From contig CAYZXA010000001.1 of assembly GCA_964482335.1 (NCBI GenBank), forward strand, positions 24,983 through 88,982: a DNA stretch of 64,000 bases, read 5' to 3'. The stretch comes from an uncultured Candidatus Saccharibacteria bacterium (lineage in GTDB: Bacteria; Patescibacteriota; Minisyncoccia; Minisyncoccales; MHMH01). Positions 3,553-64,000 of this stretch are shown here, piece by piece (within the stretch, counting starts at the first letter, position 1; every line of letters starts with the position of its first letter). The translations under genes were made by a program, and so were the position numbers. Below the pieces are notes generated by a model. The model made no database searches, was not told the origin of the DNA, and saw only the letters and a list, made by a program, of their open reading frames with translations.

Positions 3553-4320
3553 ATGGAAACTCAATTTATACTTAGTTTATTGGTGGGAATTTTTATTGGA
3601 GGGGCGGCGGGATATTTAGGATCCTTGATGGTTTCTAAGAGAATGGCTTTGGTGGGGGGAGCTTTGGGGCATTTAACCTTACCAGGAATTGCTTTGGCTC
3701 TCATTTATGGTTTTGATGTTTCTTTAGGAGCTTTACCTTTAGTAGTTTTGGGAATAATTTTGATATGGTTATTTGAAATTAGAACTAAATTACCAATGGA
3801 GGCCTTAACTGCCGTGGTTTTTGCTTTGGGAGTGGCCGTTGCCTTTTTGATTTTACCTTCAGAGAAAACTGTTACTGCTTTAATTGGTGATATTTCTCAA
3901 GTAGAGCTTTATGGGGCTATAATTTCTATAATTTTAGCTATAACTGTTTTTTTTGTAATTCGCAGAATTTTTTCAAAAATGGTTCTTTCCGGTATTTCTG
4001 AAGATTTAGCCAGAGTCCAGGGGGTAAATGTAAAAAAATATAATTTTATTTTTTTGATTTCAATTGCTGTCTTAGTTGCTTTAGGAGTGAAAATAGTTGG
4101 TGGTCTTTTAACTGCAGCACTCATCGCTATTCCCGCTTGTGCTGCTAGAAATGTTAGTCGAAATTTATTTCAATATTCCTACGGAGCATTGATTATTGGG
4201 GCAGTGAGCTGTATCTTTGGAATTTTACTTTCTAGATTGACTGGATTTTCAGTTGGTCCTTTGATTATTTTAACTGCTACTTTCTTTTTCTTAATCTCTT
4301 TAATATGGCAAAAAAAATAG
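3553..4320 (+). CDS. metal ABC transporter permease (ZnuB-like)
   Basis: 255 aa polytopic membrane protein immediately after the ATPase. Confidence 0.75.
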   Translation: METQFILSLLVGIFIGGAAGYLGSLMVSKRMALVGGALGHLTLPGIALALIYGFDVSLGALPLVVLGIILIWLFEIRTKLPMEALTAVVFALGVAVAFLILPSEKTVTALIGDISQVELYGAIISIILAITVFFVIRRIFSKMVLSGISEDLARVQGVNVKKYNFIFLISIAVLVALGVKIVGGLLTAALIAIPACAARNVSRNLFQYSYGALIIGAVSCIFGILLSRLTGFSVGPLIILTATFFFLISLIWQKK

Positions 4321-27607: not shown

Positions 27608-28123
27608 ATGCAAGACATTCTTAATAACGGTCATTTTTATAATCCAACGCAGGGAAATTTGACATTCGACCAGATGGTTAAAGCATTGTTCCAATACATG
27701 GGAGAGAAGCCTGACAAGTCATACGAAATTATTGTTGGCTGCGATTCTTCTTCTGGAGAGGAGCCTAATTTCCCTTTGGCAGTTGTTGTTTTAAGAAAAG
27801 GCGAAGGAGGCAGGTTTTTTCTTAAGAGAATAAAATATCCTCCTGCTGAGAGAAAGTTTTTCAATTGGAAGTCAAGGATTTTGAATGAAGTTATGCTATC
27901 TTGTGAGCTTGCTTTATCCTTAAGGGAGAAAGTGGAAAAAAGAACCAAAAGAGCTGACTCCTTTGATTTCGAATTTCGTTACATCCATGCTGATGTTGGA
28001 GAAAACGGCCAGACAAAAGATATGATAAAAGAAGTGACTGGCCTTATTCGTGGTAATGGTTTTGAACCAAAGATTAAGCCAGAGTCATATGTTGCTTCAG
28101 TCGTCGCGGACCGCTACAGCTAA
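27608..28123 (+). CDS. YkuK/DUF458-like RNase-H-fold protein (hypothetical)
   Basis: HFYNPTQGNL near the N-terminus and C-terminal IKPESYVASVVADRYS resemble the DUF458 family; own promoter and SD. Confidence 0.4.
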   Translation: MQDILNNGHFYNPTQGNLTFDQMVKALFQYMGEKPDKSYEIIVGCDSSSGEEPNFPLAVVVLRKGEGGRFFLKRIKYPPAERKFFNWKSRILNEVMLSCELALSLREKVEKRTKRADSFDFEFRYIHADVGENGQTKDMIKEVTGLIRGNGFEPKIKPESYVASVVADRYS

Positions 28124-28130
28124 AATAATT

Positions 28131-29087
28131 GTGGCTATGTCAGGCGGTGTTGATTCTTCTGTTGCTGCGGCCCTTTTGAAAAGGGCTGGTTTTAATGTGA
28201 GCGGAGTTTTTATAGAACTCTATGATTTGCCTTGCCTCAGAGAAGCAGAAAAAAGAGCAAAAAGAGTTGCTAAGGCTTTAAAAGTTCCCCTCCGAGTTTT
28301 AGACTTGAGGAAGGAATTTAAAAAGGAGGTTATTGATTATTTTCTAGCTGAATATCGGGCTGGCCGTACTCCTAATCCTTGCATAGTTTGTAATAAGAAA
28401 ATAAAGTTTAATTTTGGTGGATGGATGGCTACAGGTCATTATGTCAGAAGGGTTGGTTCTAAATTGCTGCAAGCCAGAGATAAAGAAAAAGATCAGTCAT
28501 ATTTTCTTTGGCAGCTTGCTCAGAAACAATTGAAGCATATTTTGTTTCCTAACGGACACTATACCAAGCCTGAGATAAGAAAATTAGCCAAGGAATTTAA
28601 GTTGCCAGTATTTGAAACTCCTGAATCTCAGGAAGTTTGCTTTGTCCAAAAAACCACAGAACAATTCTTATCTCGTTATATTAAAAGGAAGCCAGGTTAC
28701 ATAATTGATGTTAAAGGAAAAGTTTTAGGTCAGCACCAGGGTTTGCTTTTTTACACCATCGGACAGAGAAAGGGGATAGGATTGAGTGGCGGTCCTTTCT
28801 GGGTTTTGAAAAAAGATTTAAAGAAGAATCTTTTGATAGTGACTAAAAAAGAAAAAGATTTATTGAGGAAAGAATTAACTTTTAAAAATGTTAATTGGAT
28901 TTCTGGAAAAGCTCCAAAACTGCCTTTGAAAGTTAAGGCAAAAATTAGATACCGTTCAGCACTTAGCCCAGCCACTGTCTATAAAAACAAAGTTATCTTT
29001 AATCGACCCCAACGTGCTATAACCCCCGGCCAATCAGTGGTATTTTATAGAGGTGAAGAGCTTTTAGGTGGTGGGGTGATTAGATAA
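28131..29087 (+). CDS. mnmA: tRNA 2-thiouridine(34) synthase MnmA
   Basis: PP-loop SGGVDSS; start uncertain (GTG 28131 or ATG 28137) just after the upstream stop. Confidence 0.85.
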   Translation: MAMSGGVDSSVAAALLKRAGFNVSGVFIELYDLPCLREAEKRAKRVAKALKVPLRVLDLRKEFKKEVIDYFLAEYRAGRTPNPCIVCNKKIKFNFGGWMATGHYVRRVGSKLLQARDKEKDQSYFLWQLAQKQLKHILFPNGHYTKPEIRKLAKEFKLPVFETPESQEVCFVQKTTEQFLSRYIKRKPGYIIDVKGKVLGQHQGLLFYTIGQRKGIGLSGGPFWVLKKDLKKNLLIVTKKEKDLLRKELTFKNVNWISGKAPKLPLKVKAKIRYRSALSPATVYKNKVIFNRPQRAITPGQSVVFYRGEELLGGGVIR

Positions 29088-29141
29088 TTATCTCTTAATA
29101 ACAAGACATGCTGAAAGAGGAGGCTTACCTAGTTTTCCACA

Positions 29142-29170
29142 TTGACAAGAGGTCGTGGTTTTCATAAGAT
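29142..29170 (+). promoter_or_regulatory. promoter TTGACA-N17-TAAGAT
   Basis: Perfect -35, 17-nt spacer. Confidence 0.4.
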
Positions 29171-29191
29171 TGATTAAAGCACGTTTTTTAT

Positions 29192-29229
29192 AGGAGATCT
29201 CCTTTCTTTGACTGGTCAGGAGATGTCCT
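29192..29229. promoter_or_regulatory. pair of 12-bp palindromes AGGAGATCTCCT and AGGAGATGTCCT, 14 nt apart (operator-like)
   Basis: First is a perfect palindrome; second differs at one centre position. Confidence 0.4.
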
Positions 29230-29239
29230 ACCAAGTTTA

Positions 29240-29286
29240 GGGGGTTCTGTGTTTTTAAACTACCTTTCAGAACCCCCTTTGTGTTT
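29240..29286 (+). terminator. Rho-independent terminator
   Basis: GGGGGTTCTG...CAGAACCCCC 10-bp stem followed by TTTGTGTTT. Confidence 0.55.
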
Positions 29287-29324
29287 AGTAGTTATCATTT
29301 TGTGACGAATTAAAGGATTAGGAC

Positions 29325-29353
29325 TTGACAAAGCTGAGAAGGCATGCTATAAT
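29325..29353 (+). promoter_or_regulatory. consensus sigma-70 promoter TTGACA-N17-TATAAT
   Basis: Perfect -35 and -10 hexamers with a 17-nt spacer. Confidence 0.6.
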
Positions 29354-29459
29354 ACAGACGTAGAGAGGGTCAATAACTTTTCTATATTATAATTTCACAG
29401 ACGGCTCTCTCTTCGAGAGTCGTTTGTTAGTTTAAAAAAAATAATAAGGGGGTGCTGAG

Positions 29460-29549
29460 ATGGCATATACTGTCATAAGTGGAGTGTTCTTCCCGCTTCG
29501 AAATAGGGAAGACCTAGAAGAAGCTATCGCCTGCAAGAATGAAAAGTAG
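29460..29549 (+). CDS. possible 29-aa uORF or leader peptide
   Basis: SD AAGGGGGTG 5 nt upstream; MAYTVISGVFFPLRNREDLEEAIACKNEK. Confidence 0.2.
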   Translation: MAYTVISGVFFPLRNREDLEEAIACKNEK

Positions 29550-29559
29550 GCGAGAGCAA

Positions 29560-29603
29560 GGAGGATTTATTAAATATTATGTTAAATCCAATATAAATCC
29601 TCC
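29560..29603 (+). promoter_or_regulatory. 11-bp hairpin sequestering an SD (GGAGGATTTAT...ATAAATCCTCC) and enclosing a 5-codon mini-ORF (MLNPI)
   Basis: Perfect inverted repeat; ATG 29579 inside the loop. Confidence 0.4.
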
Positions 29604-29710
29604 GATCTCTCAAGTTCAAGATATCCATCGTGAATTTGAGAGTTGGGAAATGAACATTGAAAAATACGAATTTCGTGCCGCTCATATAAAATAGAAAGGA
29701 GGTAAGTCTA

Positions 29711-30064
29711 ATGAAAACTAGTAAGATTCTTGAAAGACTATTAGAAAGTGAACCTGGCGCTGTGGTAGTTGAGGAATGTTCCAAAAAGTTTATTCTATGG
29801 ACTCTTTCAAATTCTTTCCGGAAGGAGAGAATTCTTAAAGAGCTTAGGACAAACTTTCCTAGTTTAGAAAAACAGGATTTACTATTAAAACTAGGAACTT
29901 ATCCATTATTATCCACGGCTAATAAGTTTGTTGCAAATGCTAGATACAATTCTTCATCTTCTTCCATTCGGCAGCTTTTCTTGCTGCCCTTAGTGAAAAA
30001 GAAGATTCCTCGACCAAGACGTCTTCTAGTGCGGCAGTCAAAGAGGAGGGTGATTACAACGTAA
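29711..30064 (+). CDS. hypothetical 117-aa protein with Arg/Lys-rich C-terminus
   Basis: Strong SD AAAGGAGGT 7 nt upstream; a 13-bp hairpin spans the stop codon. Confidence 0.5.
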   Translation: MKTSKILERLLESEPGAVVVEECSKKFILWTLSNSFRKERILKELRTNFPSLEKQDLLLKLGTYPLLSTANKFVANARYNSSSSSIRQLFLLPLVKKKIPRPRRLLVRQSKRRVITT

Positions 30065-30098
30065 TCTCCCTCCTCCATTTTAAACAGATGAGGTTAGA

Positions 30099-30154
30099 GG
30101 TGCTTTCCGCTTTTCGAGGCTCTCTCGAAGCGGAGGGCACCTTTGGCCTTTTTT
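30099..30154 (+). terminator. Rho-independent terminator
   Basis: GGTGCTTTCCGC...GCGGAGGGCACC imperfect stem followed by TTTGGCCTTTTTT. Confidence 0.5.
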
Positions 30155-30170
30155 GATTGTTTGAGATTTG

Positions 30171-30199
30171 TTGCTTAAAAGCTGTTAATTGGATATAAT
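30171..30199 (+). promoter_or_regulatory. promoter TTGCTT-N17-TATAAT for alaS (short SD-less leader)
   Basis: Sequence motif only. Confidence 0.4.
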
Positions 30200-30211
30200 A
30201 TAATAATTGAA

Positions 30212-31963
30212 ATGACTTCCAAGAAACTACGGCAAGAGTTTTTAAGTTTTTTTAAGAAAAAAGGACACAAAATTGTACCCTCATCTTCACTTTTGCCGAC
30301 TGATCCTTCTGTTTTATTTACTACTGCTGGCATGCAGCAGTTCAAGGAATATTTTTTAGGCAAGAAATCTCCTTATGGTAAAAAAACAGCCTCTTGCCAA
30401 AAATGTTTCCGTACTTCTGATATTGATATAGTTGGAGATATTTCCCATCTAACTTTCCTTGAAATGCTGGGAAACTTCAGTTTCGGCGGTTACTTTAAGA
30501 AAGAAGCAATGGCATTGGCTTTAGAACTTTTAACAAAACAATACAAAATTCCAATTGGAAAGCTATGGTTTACCTATTTTAAGGGAGATAAAGAAATGCC
30601 AGAAGATGAAGAATCAAAGAAAATCTGGCAGAGTTTAGGCGTTTCTTCAAACCAAATTTCTGGTTTTTCTAGAGAGGATAATTTCTGGGGGCCGACTGGC
30701 CAAGCTGGTCCTTGCGGGCCAACCACCGAGATTCATTATGAACTGACTTCTCAACCCTGTGAAAAAGGAAAGAAATGTCTGCCCAATTGTAGTTGCGGTC
30801 GCTTTCTTGAGATTTGGAACTTGGTTTTTAATGAATATCATCAGGATAAAAATGGAAGTTTAACTTTGTTGAAGCAAAAAGGAGTTGATACTGGCATGGG
30901 TTTGGAAAGATTGGCGGCGGTCTCGCAGGGTGTGCCTTCAGTTTTTGAAACAGATTTATTCAAACCACTTTTAAAAGAGATTGAGAAAATTTCTCCAGAA
31001 CCCTACAGTCAGAATCCCAAACCTTACCGCATTATTGTTGATCATATTAAAGGTGTTGTTTTTCTAGCTGCTGAAGGCATTTTTCCATCAAATGTTGAAC
31101 AAGGTTACATTTTAAGAAGGATTTTGAGGAGGATTATAAGACTTGGCAGATTACTCAATTTTCCCAGCAACTTTTTAATTCCTTTAGCTAAAAAAGTTAT
31201 TGAAATTTATCAAGACATTTATCCAGAATTGAAGAGGCAGGAGCCCGATATATTAACCGTTATCCAGAAAGAAGAAGAAAAGTTTTCTAAGACCTTAGCT
31301 AAAGGCCTGAGGCAGTTTGAAAAGATCGCCACCTTAGGAGATATTGATGGCCAGGATGCTTTTCATCTTTTCGATACTTATGGTTTTCCTTTAGAGGTGA
31401 CAGAAGAGTTAGCTAGAGAGAAAGGTTTAAAGATTGATAAAAGAGGGTTTGAGGAAGCTTTTGAAAAACATCGGGCTGTTTCCAGGGCAGGCCGAGAGAA
31501 GAAATTTGGTGGAGTGGGCAAGGAGGCCGGCTTTGAATCAGCTAAGCTTCATACGGCCACTCATTTGCTGCATGCGGCCTTAAGGAAAGTTTTAGGTTCT
31601 CATGTTAAGCAAATGGGTTCAGATATTACTCCAGCCAGGCTTCGTTTTGATTTTTCTCATCCTTGCAAAGTGACTGAAGCTGAAATCAGAAAAGTGGAAA
31701 AAATAGTAAATCAGAAGATCAAAGATGATTTACAGGTTGAAAAGATTGAAATGAAATATGAAGAAGCCTTGGAATTTGGTGCTTTAGCTTTTTTTAAAGA
31801 GAAATATCCTCTCAAAGTAACTGTCTATTCCATTAATGACTTTTCAAAAGAAATCTGCGCTGGTCCTCACGTTAAGAGAACTTCAGAGCTTGGCCACTTT
31901 AAAATTATTAAAGAAGAAAGCTCGGGAGCAGGTGTTAGAAGAATTAGAGCAATTTTAGAATAA
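30212..31963 (+). CDS. alaS: alanine--tRNA ligase lacking the C-terminal C-Ala domain (583 aa)
   Basis: Catalytic core, editing-domain HxxxH (HTATHLLHAAL) and CAGPHV motifs; ends about 290 aa earlier than canonical AlaRS. Confidence 0.9.
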   Translation: MTSKKLRQEFLSFFKKKGHKIVPSSSLLPTDPSVLFTTAGMQQFKEYFLGKKSPYGKKTASCQKCFRTSDIDIVGDISHLTFLEMLGNFSFGGYFKKEAMALALELLTKQYKIPIGKLWFTYFKGDKEMPEDEESKKIWQSLGVSSNQISGFSREDNFWGPTGQAGPCGPTTEIHYELTSQPCEKGKKCLPNCSCGRFLEIWNLVFNEYHQDKNGSLTLLKQKGVDTGMGLERLAAVSQGVPSVFETDLFKPLLKEIEKISPEPYSQNPKPYRIIVDHIKGVVFLAAEGIFPSNVEQGYILRRILRRIIRLGRLLNFPSNFLIPLAKKVIEIYQDIYPELKRQEPDILTVIQKEEEKFSKTLAKGLRQFEKIATLGDIDGQDAFHLFDTYGFPLEVTEELAREKGLKIDKRGFEEAFEKHRAVSRAGREKKFGGVGKEAGFESAKLHTATHLLHAALRKVLGSHVKQMGSDITPARLRFDFSHPCKVTEAEIRKVEKIVNQKIKDDLQVEKIEMKYEEALEFGALAFFKEKYPLKVTVYSINDFSKEICAGPHVKRTSELGHFKIIKEESSGAGVRRIRAILE

Positions 31964-48779: not shown

Positions 48780-49065
48780 CAGCGCCGTGGAGGAGTAGTA
48801 CCTCACCAGTCTCATAAATTTTTGTGACCTAAAATGGTAACATTTTATGGAAAAATTCCCGAAATTGCTGGGAACCCGTAAAAATATTTTATGGCAATCA
48901 GCAGCCAAGCTTCGACATTTTGTCGGAGAAGGTTCAGAGACTATAATGGGAACACCCTTTTATTTAAGGGAGATGGGATAGTCCGTTCCATTTGGAAACA
49001 AATGGCTAACACTAAAGAAGCTGGGGGCCCCCGTGCAATTCGGGGCGGCGCAACAAAGATTCTAT
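48780..49065 (+). ncRNA. candidate structured non-coding RNA or long 5' leader (unclassified)
   Basis: Several local hairpins (CGACAtttTGTCG; CCATTTGgaaaCAAATGG; GCCCCGtgcaattCGGGGC) and a GC-rich block atypical of this genome; the only ORF (48891..49094) has no SD and odd composition. Confidence 0.3.
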
Positions 49066-62490: not shown

Positions 62491-63927
62491 ATGATTATGG
62501 CGTATATACCAACAATTGGACTGGAGATACATGTTGAGTTGAAAACAAAGAGCAAAATGTTTTGTTCTTGTTTGAATGATGCAAATGAGTCACATCCTAA
62601 TGTTAATATTTGTCCTATTTGTATGGGACACCCGGGCACGCTGCCCGTTATTAATGAAGAAGCTTTAAGAAAAGTCATTAAAACTGGCTTGGCTTTGAAC
62701 AGTGATATTCCTGAACATTCCAAATTTGACAGGAAAAACTATTTTTATCCTGACCTGCCTAAGGGTTATCAAATATCTCAGTATGATATGCCTCTTTGTA
62801 AGGGGGGCTTTTTGAAGGTTAATGGCAAAAAGATAAAGATTACCAGGGTTCATTTGGAAGAAGACACGGGCAAGCTAATTCATCCCGAAGAGACTCAGTA
62901 TTCTTTGGTTGATTTTAATCGAGCTGGCATTCCTTTAATGGAGTTAGTAACAGAGCCCGACATCACTTCAGCCATAGAGGCTCGCAAATTTGCTGAAGAG
63001 TTTCAGCTAATTTTACGATATCTCGGTGTGTCTGAAGCCAATATGGAAAAAGGGCAAATGAGGGTTGAAGCAAATATTTCTTTGAAGAAAGGTTCTAAAT
63101 TAGGAACTAAGGTAGAGATTAAGAACTTAAATTCATTTAGGTCGGTTGAGAGGGGGATTGATTATGAGATTGAGCGGCAGGCAAAGCTTTTAAAAGTAGG
63201 CAAGAAGGTTATACAGGAAACCCGGGGTTGGCACGATTTCAAAGAAATAACTTTTAGCCAAAGGGCAAAAGAAGAATCTCATGATTATCGATATTTCCCT
63301 GAGCCAGACTTACCACCTCTTCATTTTGGCTTGAAAACCATTCGAGAGATTAAAGGTGAAATTCCTGAACTGCCTTTTGGTAGGAGAGAGAGATTTAAAA
63401 AGGAATATGGTATTTTAGACAAAGAAATTGAGGTACTTGTTCAAAATAAAGACTTGGGTGAATATTTTGAAAAGGCAATGTCAGAAATAGGGGATAGAAA
63501 GCTTGTTAAACTTTGTACAAACTACATGTTGACTGATTTGCAGGGTTTATTAAAAAGAGCTTCAGTTGTTGGAGAAGACTTCAGGATTACCCCGGAAGAT
63601 TTTGCTAAATTCATTATTTTAATTTCTCAAGGCAAAATCTCAAGCAAAATAGCCAAACAAGTTTTAGCAGAGATGTTCTCTACTGGTGCTGATCCCTCTC
63701 AGATAATTAAAAAGAAAGGGTTGGTGCAGATTACTAACGAAAGGGAAATTGAGATGGCTGTTAAAGAAGTAATTTCTAAGAATCCCAAGGCAATCAAAGA
63801 TTACAAAAAAGGAAAAGAAAACGCTTTTCAATTTTTAATAGGGCAGGTGATGGCTCAAACTCGTGGCAAAGCTAGTCCAGCACTAGTTAATAAAATATTA
63901 AAAGTACTCTTGACAAAAATAAAATAG
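62491..63927 (+). CDS. gatB: Asp/Glu-tRNA(Asn/Gln) amidotransferase subunit B
   Basis: IGLEIHVEL N-terminus, GatB/YqeY C-terminal domain; start may be ATG 62497. Confidence 0.93.
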   Translation: MIMAYIPTIGLEIHVELKTKSKMFCSCLNDANESHPNVNICPICMGHPGTLPVINEEALRKVIKTGLALNSDIPEHSKFDRKNYFYPDLPKGYQISQYDMPLCKGGFLKVNGKKIKITRVHLEEDTGKLIHPEETQYSLVDFNRAGIPLMELVTEPDITSAIEARKFAEEFQLILRYLGVSEANMEKGQMRVEANISLKKGSKLGTKVEIKNLNSFRSVERGIDYEIERQAKLLKVGKKVIQETRGWHDFKEITFSQRAKEESHDYRYFPEPDLPPLHFGLKTIREIKGEIPELPFGRRERFKKEYGILDKEIEVLVQNKDLGEYFEKAMSEIGDRKLVKLCTNYMLTDLQGLLKRASVVGEDFRITPEDFAKFIILISQGKISSKIAKQVLAEMFSTGADPSQIIKKKGLVQITNEREIEMAVKEVISKNPKAIKDYKKGKENAFQFLIGQVMAQTRGKASPALVNKILKVLLTKIK

Positions 63928-64000
63928 GAGTTATAATAAAAACAATCTCATTTAAGTTAAAAGGAGGTAAACTTATGAGTAACAAGGGTAATAGTTTCTC

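Follow-up and report, generated by a model that had tools for sequence, protein, structure and literature searches.

A conserved basic-protein gene bounded by covarying RNA hairpins in a Candidatus Saccharibacteria genome, a candidate for RNA-level gene control

Attenuation leaders of the ribosomal protein type, such as those of Bacillus infC-rpmI-rplT (L20) and L10, for which there are Rfam families, combine a strong promoter with a structured leader that contains an intrinsic terminator, and lie ahead of a gene for a small and very basic protein among translation genes. A second described group is that of the intercistronic stem-loops (phage T7 RNase III sites, REP/BIME elements, and the puf and pap hairpins), which are repeated, strand-specific hairpins placed after stop codons and ahead of the next cistron. 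Here we describe a transcription unit with features of both, at positions 29325-30155 (+ strand) of a 64-kb stretch of DNA from an uncultured Candidatus Saccharibacteria bacterium (contig CAYZXA010000001.1; the whole stretch of 64,000 nucleotides is called the window). It encodes a basic protein of 117 residues, here called X. In its working the unit appears most like a ribosomal-protein-type attenuator leader together with intercistronic stabiliser or processing hairpins, and it lies outside all of the curated RNA and protein families tested. We lean towards the view that X is expressed from a promoted and self-terminated unit, with attenuation at a leader hairpin (H2) and RNA processing, stabilisation or protein binding at hairpin modules.

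The likeness to ribosomal protein leaders extends to covariation within the leader. Unlike them, the unit has no Rfam match, X is no recognisable ribosomal protein, and one of the leader motifs (M4) stands in a related locus before unrelated genes; the hairpins also cap the 3' end and overlap the stop codon, and binding by X is only conjectural. As with intercistronic stem-loops, hairpins are found at both ends of the most conserved cistron, which is X, and their stems of about 20 bp would fit double-strand-specific RNases. They differ in having a new sequence and shape, namely a bipartite module in which a GGAGG/CCUCC hairpin is joined by a second one and by a conserved single-stranded tail, for which cleavage is only predicted. 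The STAB-SD element of the cryIIIA leader likewise has GGAGG-type tracts far from the start codons in use, in untranslated parts of a highly expressed mRNA. In the unit, by contrast, the tracts resembling Shine-Dalgarno sequences (SDs) are paired with CCUCC in stable hairpins and not exposed for the 30S subunit, and their role is putative. Leader-peptide attenuators and type I toxin-antitoxin loci share with the unit a long leader that carries stable hairpins and short open reading frames (ORFs) preceded by good SDs, as well as a small protein with its own promoter and terminator. Unlike in those systems, the mini-ORF comes after the terminator and the mini-ORFs lack conservation; the product is a basic, predicted soluble protein of 117 residues that is conserved vertically, and no conserved antisense RNA is evident.

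The features of the unit, in order, are the following.

29325-29353, + strand: sigma-70-type promoter; TTGACA, a 17-nt spacer ending in TGC, and TATAAT (extended -10); 12/12 match.
29360-29385, + strand: 5'-proximal stem-loop H1; the purine-rich arm GUAGAGAGG is predicted by RNAfold to pair with CUUUUCUAU.
29397-29435, + strand: leader hairpin H2 (29397-29427; 13 bp, ACAGACGGCUCUC/GAGAGUCGUUUGU) and a U-rich tract; terminator-like, a putative attenuator.
29446-29454 and 29460-29549, + strand: SD AAGGGGGTG (AAGGGGGUG) and, 5 nt further, the AUG of a 29-codon ORF (ORF29).
29527-29553, + strand: hairpin b, UCGCCUGC/GUAGGCGA, enclosing the UAG stop of ORF29; predicted in the RNAfold minimum free energy and centroid structures, with no comparative support.
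29560-29603, + strand: hairpin c (Hp-A); perfect 11-bp stem GGAGGATTTAT/ATAAATCCTCC (GGAGGAUUUAU/AUAAAUCCUCC).
29603-29668, + strand: motif M4; a covarying hairpin (29603-29646) followed by a single-stranded tail UUGGGAAAUGAAC (consensus AUGGGAAAUAGUUCUUUG).
29695-29703, + strand: SD of X, AAAGGAGGT (AAAGGAGGU), 7 nt 5' of the ATG.
29711-30064, + strand: gene X; 117 residues, pI 10.9, with a predicted alpha/beta core (residues 1-93) and a disordered basic tail.
30043-30075, + strand: stop-codon hairpin GAGGAGGGUGAUUAC/GUAAUCUCCCUCCUC; 14 pairs and one U.U mismatch, with the TAA in the 3' arm.
30084-30155, + strand: terminal long hairpin (core 30099-30141, apex GGCUCUCUC) and U-run TTTGGCCTTTTTT; folding free energy (dG) -47, z = -8.6.

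The locus had been picked out in a first-pass annotation, made by a model from the sequence of the window, as a self-contained unit with its own promoter, a long structured leader, a small basic protein and a terminator. This description is supported. Every sequence feature that it listed is present where it had been placed: the perfect TTGACA-N17-TATAAT promoter (with TG upstream), the first SD with the 29-codon ORF downstream, the third SD before the 117-residue ORF, the stop codon of that ORF inside a hairpin of the GGAGGG/CCCTCC type, and a separate strong hairpin with a T-run after the ORF. It was also proposed that the unit would have to be doubted if relatives lacked its hairpins or an intact ORF; several of the hairpins are kept in relatives, with compensatory changes, and the ORF is intact there. 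What does not hold is that canonical SDs are rare elsewhere in the window, since AGGAGG occurs 35 times and GGAGG 77 times on the + strand, about once per gene. Hairpins of the GGAGG...CCTCC type do occur at only three places in the window, two of them in the unit.

On the evidence of sequence comparison, X is a real protein gene of a conserved, unannotated family. Searching with the single sequence brought up one relative, P0002, at 63% identity; its contig also has the gene order mnmA-X-alaS. A profile search of 1.8 billion cluster representatives gave 18 proteins, of which 15 small ones were aligned with the window protein. Strict peptide-pattern searches of genome and metagenome contigs gave no new relatives of X, and a looser search with sub-alignments gave two contigs with X from metagenome-assembled genomes (MAGs). 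The homologues number about 25, and the ORF is intact in these divergent, AT-rich sequences. Identity to X among the aligned ones ranges over 29-63%, and they share one invariant Trp and a conserved pattern of hydrophobic residues. The loci that carry them are referred to here by L numbers; between the window and locus L007, X is 74% and mnmA 81% identical at the nucleotide level. In 11 of 11 homologue pairs the third codon positions carry an excess of the changes (for example 22/23/47 and 31/22/55 for the three positions), and in all 11 about half of the conserved residues use different codons. The sequence AAAGGAGG(U/C) precedes the start codon in every homologue examined, and the SD of X is mostly unpaired in the fold predicted by RNAfold.

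AlphaFold, run on a 16-sequence alignment, modelled X with a pLDDT (predicted local distance difference test) of 85, rising above 90 for residues 11-90. The order of elements in the model is a helix, two strands, helices, two strands, a helix, a short strand and the disordered basic tail. All members of the family are basic (pI 9.8-11.2), which is consistent with nucleic-acid binding. The codon-position bias, the integrity of the ORF across divergent homologues and the confident model together speak against X as a spurious translation of a non-coding RNA, a reading that was rejected. Searches of Pfam, NCBIfam, PHROG and the PDB found no family for X, the best E-values being ≥ 0.01 and inconsistent between family members; the earlier statement that the protein has no recognisable family is therefore correct for these databases, but does not hold in the wider sense, since a conserved unannotated family exists. 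After its extra N-terminal helix, the core of X in the AlphaFold model has the same order of elements as the eIF1/SUI1-YciH-like fold (beta-beta-alpha-beta-beta-alpha-beta). This is a lead only, at a Foldseek TM (template modelling) score of ≤ ~0.41 and E ≥ 0.04, with no sequence or profile similarity. Two other assignments, a split C-terminal C-Ala domain of alanyl-tRNA synthetase (AlaRS) and a LAGLIDADG domain, were rejected; the fold matches are weak, and both are contradicted by context and by motif conservation. A separate observation concerns L007 (975-990), where the GAGGAGGG tract is one nucleotide shorter than in the window and the other family members; this deletion shifts the frame and cuts the C-terminus to KRG*. 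The stop-codon hairpin there is weakened by the deletion but still forms. The deletion may be an assembly error or a real frameshift.

The family is, as judged from contig labels, so far seen only in bacteria resembling the Candidate Phyla Radiation (CPR), in MAGs labelled Candidatus Saccharibacteria; two GTDB genome contigs with X carry the label 'uncultured Candidatus Saccharibacteria bacterium'. X is single-copy and has a conserved housekeeping context, in most relatives between rpsP and khpA-trmD. It follows rpsP in L010, L011-13, L015/16 and L144, as part of rpmF-nusB-rnc-rpsP where more upstream sequence exists. Among the annotated loci khpA lies downstream of X in L010, L011 and L016, followed by trmD in L010 and L011, and in L009, L014 and L020 X is followed by the promoter and leader of khpA. 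The mnmA-X-alaS order is found only in the window and L007, and a family member without the basic tail, L017, has an unrelated context. Neither khpA, rpsP nor trmD is present in the 64-kb window, where the unit is flanked by mnmA (28050-29087) and a short alaS (30212-31963) within a wider cluster (secY-adk-map ... infA-rpsM-rpsK-rpsD). X is probably a highly expressed CPR protein in a translation cluster. A separate TTGACA promoter precedes khpA in the relatives, and the khpA leader contains a conserved hairpin (AUAGUAGCUAUUU...AAGGUCGGGCUACU) with no Rfam match (L009 770-840; L010 735-775; L011 4470-4510; L016 3583-3625; L020 ~3555-3600).

The promoter of the unit has the hexamers and the 16-18-nt spacing of sigma-70 promoters, and transcription is predicted to start near 29360. 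Sites matching at 12/12 number two on the + strand of the window; the only other perfect TTGACA-N17-TATAAT is at 63910-63941, with a target past the window end. An equivalent TTGACA(A/T)A...TGnTAnAAT promoter lies 5' of the X homologue in L007, L010, L011, L015, L016, L017 and L144, and indeed at every X locus with upstream sequence except L020, where the upstream sequence is partly masked. The distance from the -10 element to the start codon of X varies widely: 26 nt in L007, 124 in L010 and L016, 129 in L015, 190 in L011, 230 in L017 and 357 in the window. Over its first ~100 nt the window leader is homologous to those of L010, L015/16, L011 and L144. In these loci a purine-rich motif of the AGAGGAGAG type, as found in H1, also follows the promoter in the equivalent position, and it occurs in the truncated L014 leader, in which no promoter is visible. 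Weak promoter-like sites (9/12) are present on the minus strand of the region.

Hairpin H2 is conserved with its U tract in L010, L015, L016 and L011, where five of the 15 pairs are compensatory (RNAalifold). A pattern scan picked out H2 as terminator-like in three loci (the window, L010 and L011), and in L010 and L011 it found no other site of this kind. Hairpins of the H2 type also occur in L020 (607-637) and L144. H2 therefore has the form of a leader terminator, a conserved terminator-like hairpin with a U tract between the promoter and the first start codon, and from this form and its conservation it is a putative attenuator.

Ahead of X lies a module of two hairpins. The first, Hp-A, had been described as an 11-bp hairpin that buries GGAGGA, the second SD, and has a five-codon ORF (MLNPI) in its loop. 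This is present as described (ATG TTA AAT CCA ATA TAA, 29579-29596), but the GGAGGA is not an SD serving any conserved ORF; it forms the purine arm in a recurrent type of hairpin, GGAGG/CCUCC, and no ATG is present in the loop of the equivalent hairpin in L009 or in L144. A hairpin with purine and pyrimidine arms, ending in CCUC(C), lies directly 5' of M4 in L009, L014, L021, L022, L144 and three of the four L020 copies; all of the L020 copies of M4 are preceded by a CCUC-ending hairpin. Hp-A is thus conserved by position and type, and not by sequence or mini-ORF.

The second hairpin of the module, M4, aligns together with its tail with the X leaders of L009, L011, L020, L021 and L022. On an independent MAFFT alignment 11 of 19 pairs are compensatory (RNAalifold), and 86.7% of alignment cells are paired against 70.1% in shuffles, slid controls being much lower. 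A covariance model (R1) recovered the known sites and added L014, L023, L144 and three further copies in L020. In the resulting 10-sequence alignment 89.9% of cells are paired (71.9% in shuffles), 14 of 19 pairs show changes in both partners, and covariation scores 0.669, compared with 0.313 in shuffles (0/500 reach the observed value) and ≤ 0.25 in slid controls; this alignment was fitted to the model and its figures are biased towards structure, but the independent MAFFT alignment agrees. The window site scores 65.6 bits on the + strand and 28.5 bits on the - strand. Because of these strand-specific scores and the conserved G.U pairs, the structure belongs to the transcript. The window has exactly one copy of M4, the sole R1 match with E < 1 on its + strand, and M4 was detected only in loci encoding X, although three copies precede other genes in the L020 array. 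An association with phages was considered and rejected: a degenerate 15-base pattern matched 120 viral contigs, but when the 80 listed loci were scanned with the covariance model no genuine copy of M4 came up, so that the matches are due to chance.

The 3' end of X shows a comparable arrangement. For the stop-codon hairpin the predicted dG is about -21 to -22 kcal/mol and varies with the flanking sequence included. Since variable loop lengths threw a joint MAFFT/RNAalifold alignment of the entire 3' element out of register, each sequence was folded by itself, anchored on the aligned 5' arm. On this basis a GGAGGAGGG.../...CCCUCCUCC hairpin folds in 10 of 10 loci encoding the basic tail (dG -10.6 to -29). 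Its outer GGAGG/CCUCC pairs are conserved in sequence, and its inner pairs covary (UA/CG/AU, GC/AU, CG/UA and others). The stop codon lies in the 5' arm in L020, in the loop in L011, in the 3' arm in the window and L009, and upstream of the hairpin in L022 and L144, and L020 reads the motif in another frame, giving QGGG instead of KRRV. Because the hairpin persists whatever the frame or the position of the stop, selection acts on the RNA, and the conserved KRRV(I/V)T(V/T) ending of the protein is at least partly a by-product of this.

The terminal hairpin is GC-rich and stands directly before a U-run, as expected of an intrinsic terminator. Relatives have a long covarying hairpin at the same place (CCCAGAAGUGCUC.../...GAGCACUUCUGGG versus CCAAUCACUUGCCAAGG.../...CCUUGGCAGAUGAUUGG, with an apical AAUCUCUCUCCUC), which abuts the -35 element or promoter of khpA and has no U-run. 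In the window and L007 it is a canonical terminator, because the U-run follows. The 5' pair (Hp-A and M4) and the 3' pair (stop-codon hairpin and long hairpin) have the same general design, although the M4 covariance model does not recognise the long hairpin at the 3' end.

Between H2 and the module of Hp-A and M4 lies a slot of variable content. In the window it holds ORF29, in L009 an unrelated 32-residue ORF with a strong SD, in L144 a 68-residue gene and in L020 six genes; a slot ORF is absent in L010, L016, L011 and L007. No homology was found among the small slot ORFs on comparison, and ORF29 has no BLASTP similarity to the 32-codon ORF of L009. In the short-leader loci L010, L015 and L016 it is the SD and ATG of X itself that align with those of ORF29. 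The coding region of ORF29 is predicted by RNAfold to pair with the tail of M4. A 51-residue ORF (29539-29694), called by some gene callers, is taken to be spurious because the same frame in L009 has a stop and no equivalent start. L144 has the layout of the window: promoter, H1, H2, an SD with its unrelated 68-residue gene, Hp-A, M4, a further hairpin, SD and X. In L020 an array headed by an H2-type hairpin has four M4 copies distributed through six small unrelated genes and X, each copy ahead of one gene group or of X.

Three side observations belong to these loci. The six small genes of L020 (600-3000, directly upstream of X) encode 94, 56, 94, 104, 42 and 84 residues, and two of the products look membrane-bound. 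A GIY-YIG nuclease gene (37-297) lies upstream of the array. A further long hairpin, M5 (UUCAUAGCGGCGAAGUGG...GCUAUGAAG), is found in two L020 leaders, L021, L022 and L144.

Taken whole, the predicted 797-nt transcript is much more stably folded than its shuffled versions (z = -13.7), and it is the leader (z = -8.8 when folded alone) and the 3' end (-8.5) that account for this, not the ORF (-2.8). Rfam 15 gave no relevant match in the window at the gathering threshold, none in 29050-30250 at E up to 10, and none in ten homologous loci at E up to 1, so that the Rfam scan suggested in the first-pass annotation matched no RNA family to the region of the unit. This disposes of the known structured RNAs considered (RNase P RNA, tmRNA, 6S, T-box, riboswitches, OLE/GOLLD/ROOL and group II intron), and ARAGORN found three tRNAs only in the window. 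Literature searches found no description of the X protein family or of the hairpin motifs.

On the basis of these observations, we propose that H1 and H2, about 40-75 nt after the start site, would attenuate transcription from a very strong promoter. Hp-A and M4 ahead of the SD of X, and the stop-codon and terminal hairpins at the 3' end, would mark the boundaries of the X cistron on the RNA, serving as recognition, processing or stabilising sites for a protein or an RNase and setting in this way the level of stable, translatable X mRNA. Such an arrangement would resemble the selective processing and stabilisation of polycistronic mRNAs. X would be the leading candidate for a reader of the hairpins, since it is very basic and is in every case linked to the modules. 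A slot open to unrelated small genes would lie between H2 and the first module, and in the window ORF29 occupies it. The looser description of the unit as a small-protein regulatory module, also offered at first pass, may apply.

There are a number of points against this proposal. The start site, termination at H2, read-through and processing are all predictions, and neither a convincing antiterminator for H2 nor a sensor that would switch termination was found, inspection yielding only a 6-7-bp AGAGAG/CUCUCU alternative pairing. X in L007 has a 26-nt leader and no 5' modules, and L010 and L016 are without M4, so that the 5' modules appear to be dispensable for expression. M4 is not an operator specific to X, since in L020 it stands ahead of other genes as well. 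The tail-less L017 has a promoter and a long structured leader, but neither M4 nor a stop-codon hairpin. The comparative set consists of only 10-12 loci, mostly metagenomic fragments. With regard to X as a reader, Foldseek searches of the PDB and BFVD gave only weak matches (TM ≤ ~0.41), to MutS domain I, eIF1/SUI1, TM1457 and LAGLIDADG; no fold match being significant, RNA binding is guessed from the charge of X and its gene neighbourhood, and the proteomes of AT-rich genomes are basic in general.

The alternative that survives best is an autoregulatory leader of the ribosomal protein type, in which X, as a protein associated with the ribosome or with RNA, would bind its own leader, with M4 and/or the GGAGG hairpins as mimics of its target, and excess X would promote termination at H2 or block translation. 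X is small and strongly basic and lies among translation genes (rpsP, khpA and trmD in relatives; mnmA, alaS, infA and rpsM here), and a consensus promoter is followed by a conserved leader terminator, as in the Bacillus L20 and L10 leaders. Moreover, M4 keeps G.U pairs typical of protein-recognition helices and was found only in X-encoding loci. We nevertheless regard this as possible rather than likely. M4 also precedes three unrelated gene groups in L020; it lies downstream of H2, from where termination at H2 is not easily controlled; L010, L016 and L007 do without it; and neither does the leader match an Rfam ribosomal-leader family nor X resemble any known ribosomal protein.

A more far-reaching version of our own proposal, which we put forward tentatively and consider a little less probable still, is that X and the modules form an undescribed, lineage-specific post-transcriptional system of the CPR. 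An abundant, basic, RNA-binding X, possibly associated with the ribosome or with KhpA, would read the M4 and GGAGG/CCUCC hairpins of its operon, and the leader would be an expandable and highly expressed slot in which each recruited small gene gains a copy of the module.

Much less probable is the model that came with the first description of the locus, in which translation of ORF29 and/or MLNPI remodels SD-sequestering hairpins and so controls the 117-residue ORF by leader-peptide or ribosome-mediated attenuation. ORF29 does have a strong SD (AAGGGGGUG, 5 nt, AUG), its predicted pairing with the M4 tail and the position of its stop inside hairpin b would suit such a mechanism, and small ORFs with strong SDs stand at the same position in L009 and L144. 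However, the sole leader terminator (29397-29427) is upstream of ORF29, with no terminator-like site in 29460-29711, and the SD of X is unsequestered in the predicted fold. Nor are the mini-ORFs conserved: the slot ORFs are unrelated in sequence and length (29, 32 or 68 residues, or six genes) and missing in L010, L016, L011 and L007, MLNPI has no counterpart in L009 or L144, and the 51-residue ORF is interrupted in L009.

Still more improbable is an action of the hairpin repeats on DNA, as integron-like cassette recombination sites that capture small genes into the highly expressed leader of X. The L020 array, in which a copy of M4 stands ahead of each group of its six unrelated small genes and of X, would fit this idea, as would the wholly different slot content between genomes and the nuclease gene upstream of the array. 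Against it, the G.U pairs of M4 are on the sense strand and the opposite strand scores far lower; no integrase gene was seen in the fragments examined, which are not complete genomes; and no attC-like RYYYAAC/GTTRRRY cores were visible on reading the sequences. The modules also flank X where there is no extra gene. M4 copies within one genome are as diverged as those between genomes and differ by compensatory changes, which argues for selection on the fold and not on recombination cores.

Finally, a type I toxin-antitoxin-like module, as also suggested at first pass, or an 800-nt structured non-coding RNA with a spurious 117-residue ORF, is hardly credible, for although the transcript is extremely structured (z = -13.7) and weak promoter-like sites occur on the minus strand, the ORF region is only mildly structured (z = -2.8), the ORF is intact with codon-position bias in ~25 divergent AT-rich sequences, no Rfam family matches, and X is the product of a single-copy gene vertically conserved in a housekeeping context among translation genes and is predicted to be a soluble basic alpha/beta domain of 117 residues, type I toxins being small (usually < 60 residues), hydrophobic and membrane-active.

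Some other features of the region and the window may be recorded here. The window is AT-rich (38% GC), with nearly all genes on one strand, and an identical 1.1-kb region occurs in six public contigs. The 237 nt between the mnmA stop and the X promoter (29088-29324) have no counterpart in L007 and a fold z of only -2.1; they contain a AAAGAGGAGG motif (29115-29124), a promoter-like site (10/12, 29142-29170), a small hairpin (29191-29230), and an 11-bp hairpin with a T-run (29239-29286) that resembles an mnmA terminator. The last codons of mnmA (GGGTGATTAGATAATTATCTC, 29074-29094) are 76% identical over 21 nt to the region of the X stop-codon hairpin (GGGTGATTACAACGTAATCTC, 30048-30068), which may be chance or a trace of the arrival of the unit after mnmA. 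At its other end, the mnmA ORF (28050-29087) is overlapped by ~70 nt by an RNaseH_like (PF04308) ORF (27608-28123); with the mnmA start chosen by the gene callers, 39 nt further downstream, the overlap is shorter. Downstream of the unit, alaS (30212-31963) encodes an AlaRS of 583 residues with the Pfam catalytic domain and tRNA_SAD and no domain after these, which is too short to include the C-terminal C-Ala domain of a typical bacterial AlaRS. A group I intron lies at 48780-49055 (Rfam RF00028, 91.8 bits, 48803-49005), and its flanks resemble two tRNA halves with a CAU anticodon (GCGCCGTGGAGGAGTAGTACCTCACCAGTCTCAT...intron...GGGGGCCCCCGTGCAATTCGGGGCGGCGCA) that ARAGORN does not call.

CPR bacteria (Patescibacteria) have tiny genomes with many genes of no known function, and very little is known of how they control expression. 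A basic protein that has a consensus promoter and belongs to the rpsP-khpA-trmD cluster is a concrete candidate for a factor that is specific to the lineage and associated with the ribosome or with RNA. In addition, the unit contributes at least two RNA motifs not represented in Rfam, M4 and the GGAGG/CCUCC hairpin at the stop codon. Both show clear compensatory changes between loci, and M4 would merit an Rfam entry if confirmed on a wider alignment. The unit is a good candidate for new RNA-level gene control, and its motifs offer a way to test attenuation and mRNA processing in hard-to-culture organisms.

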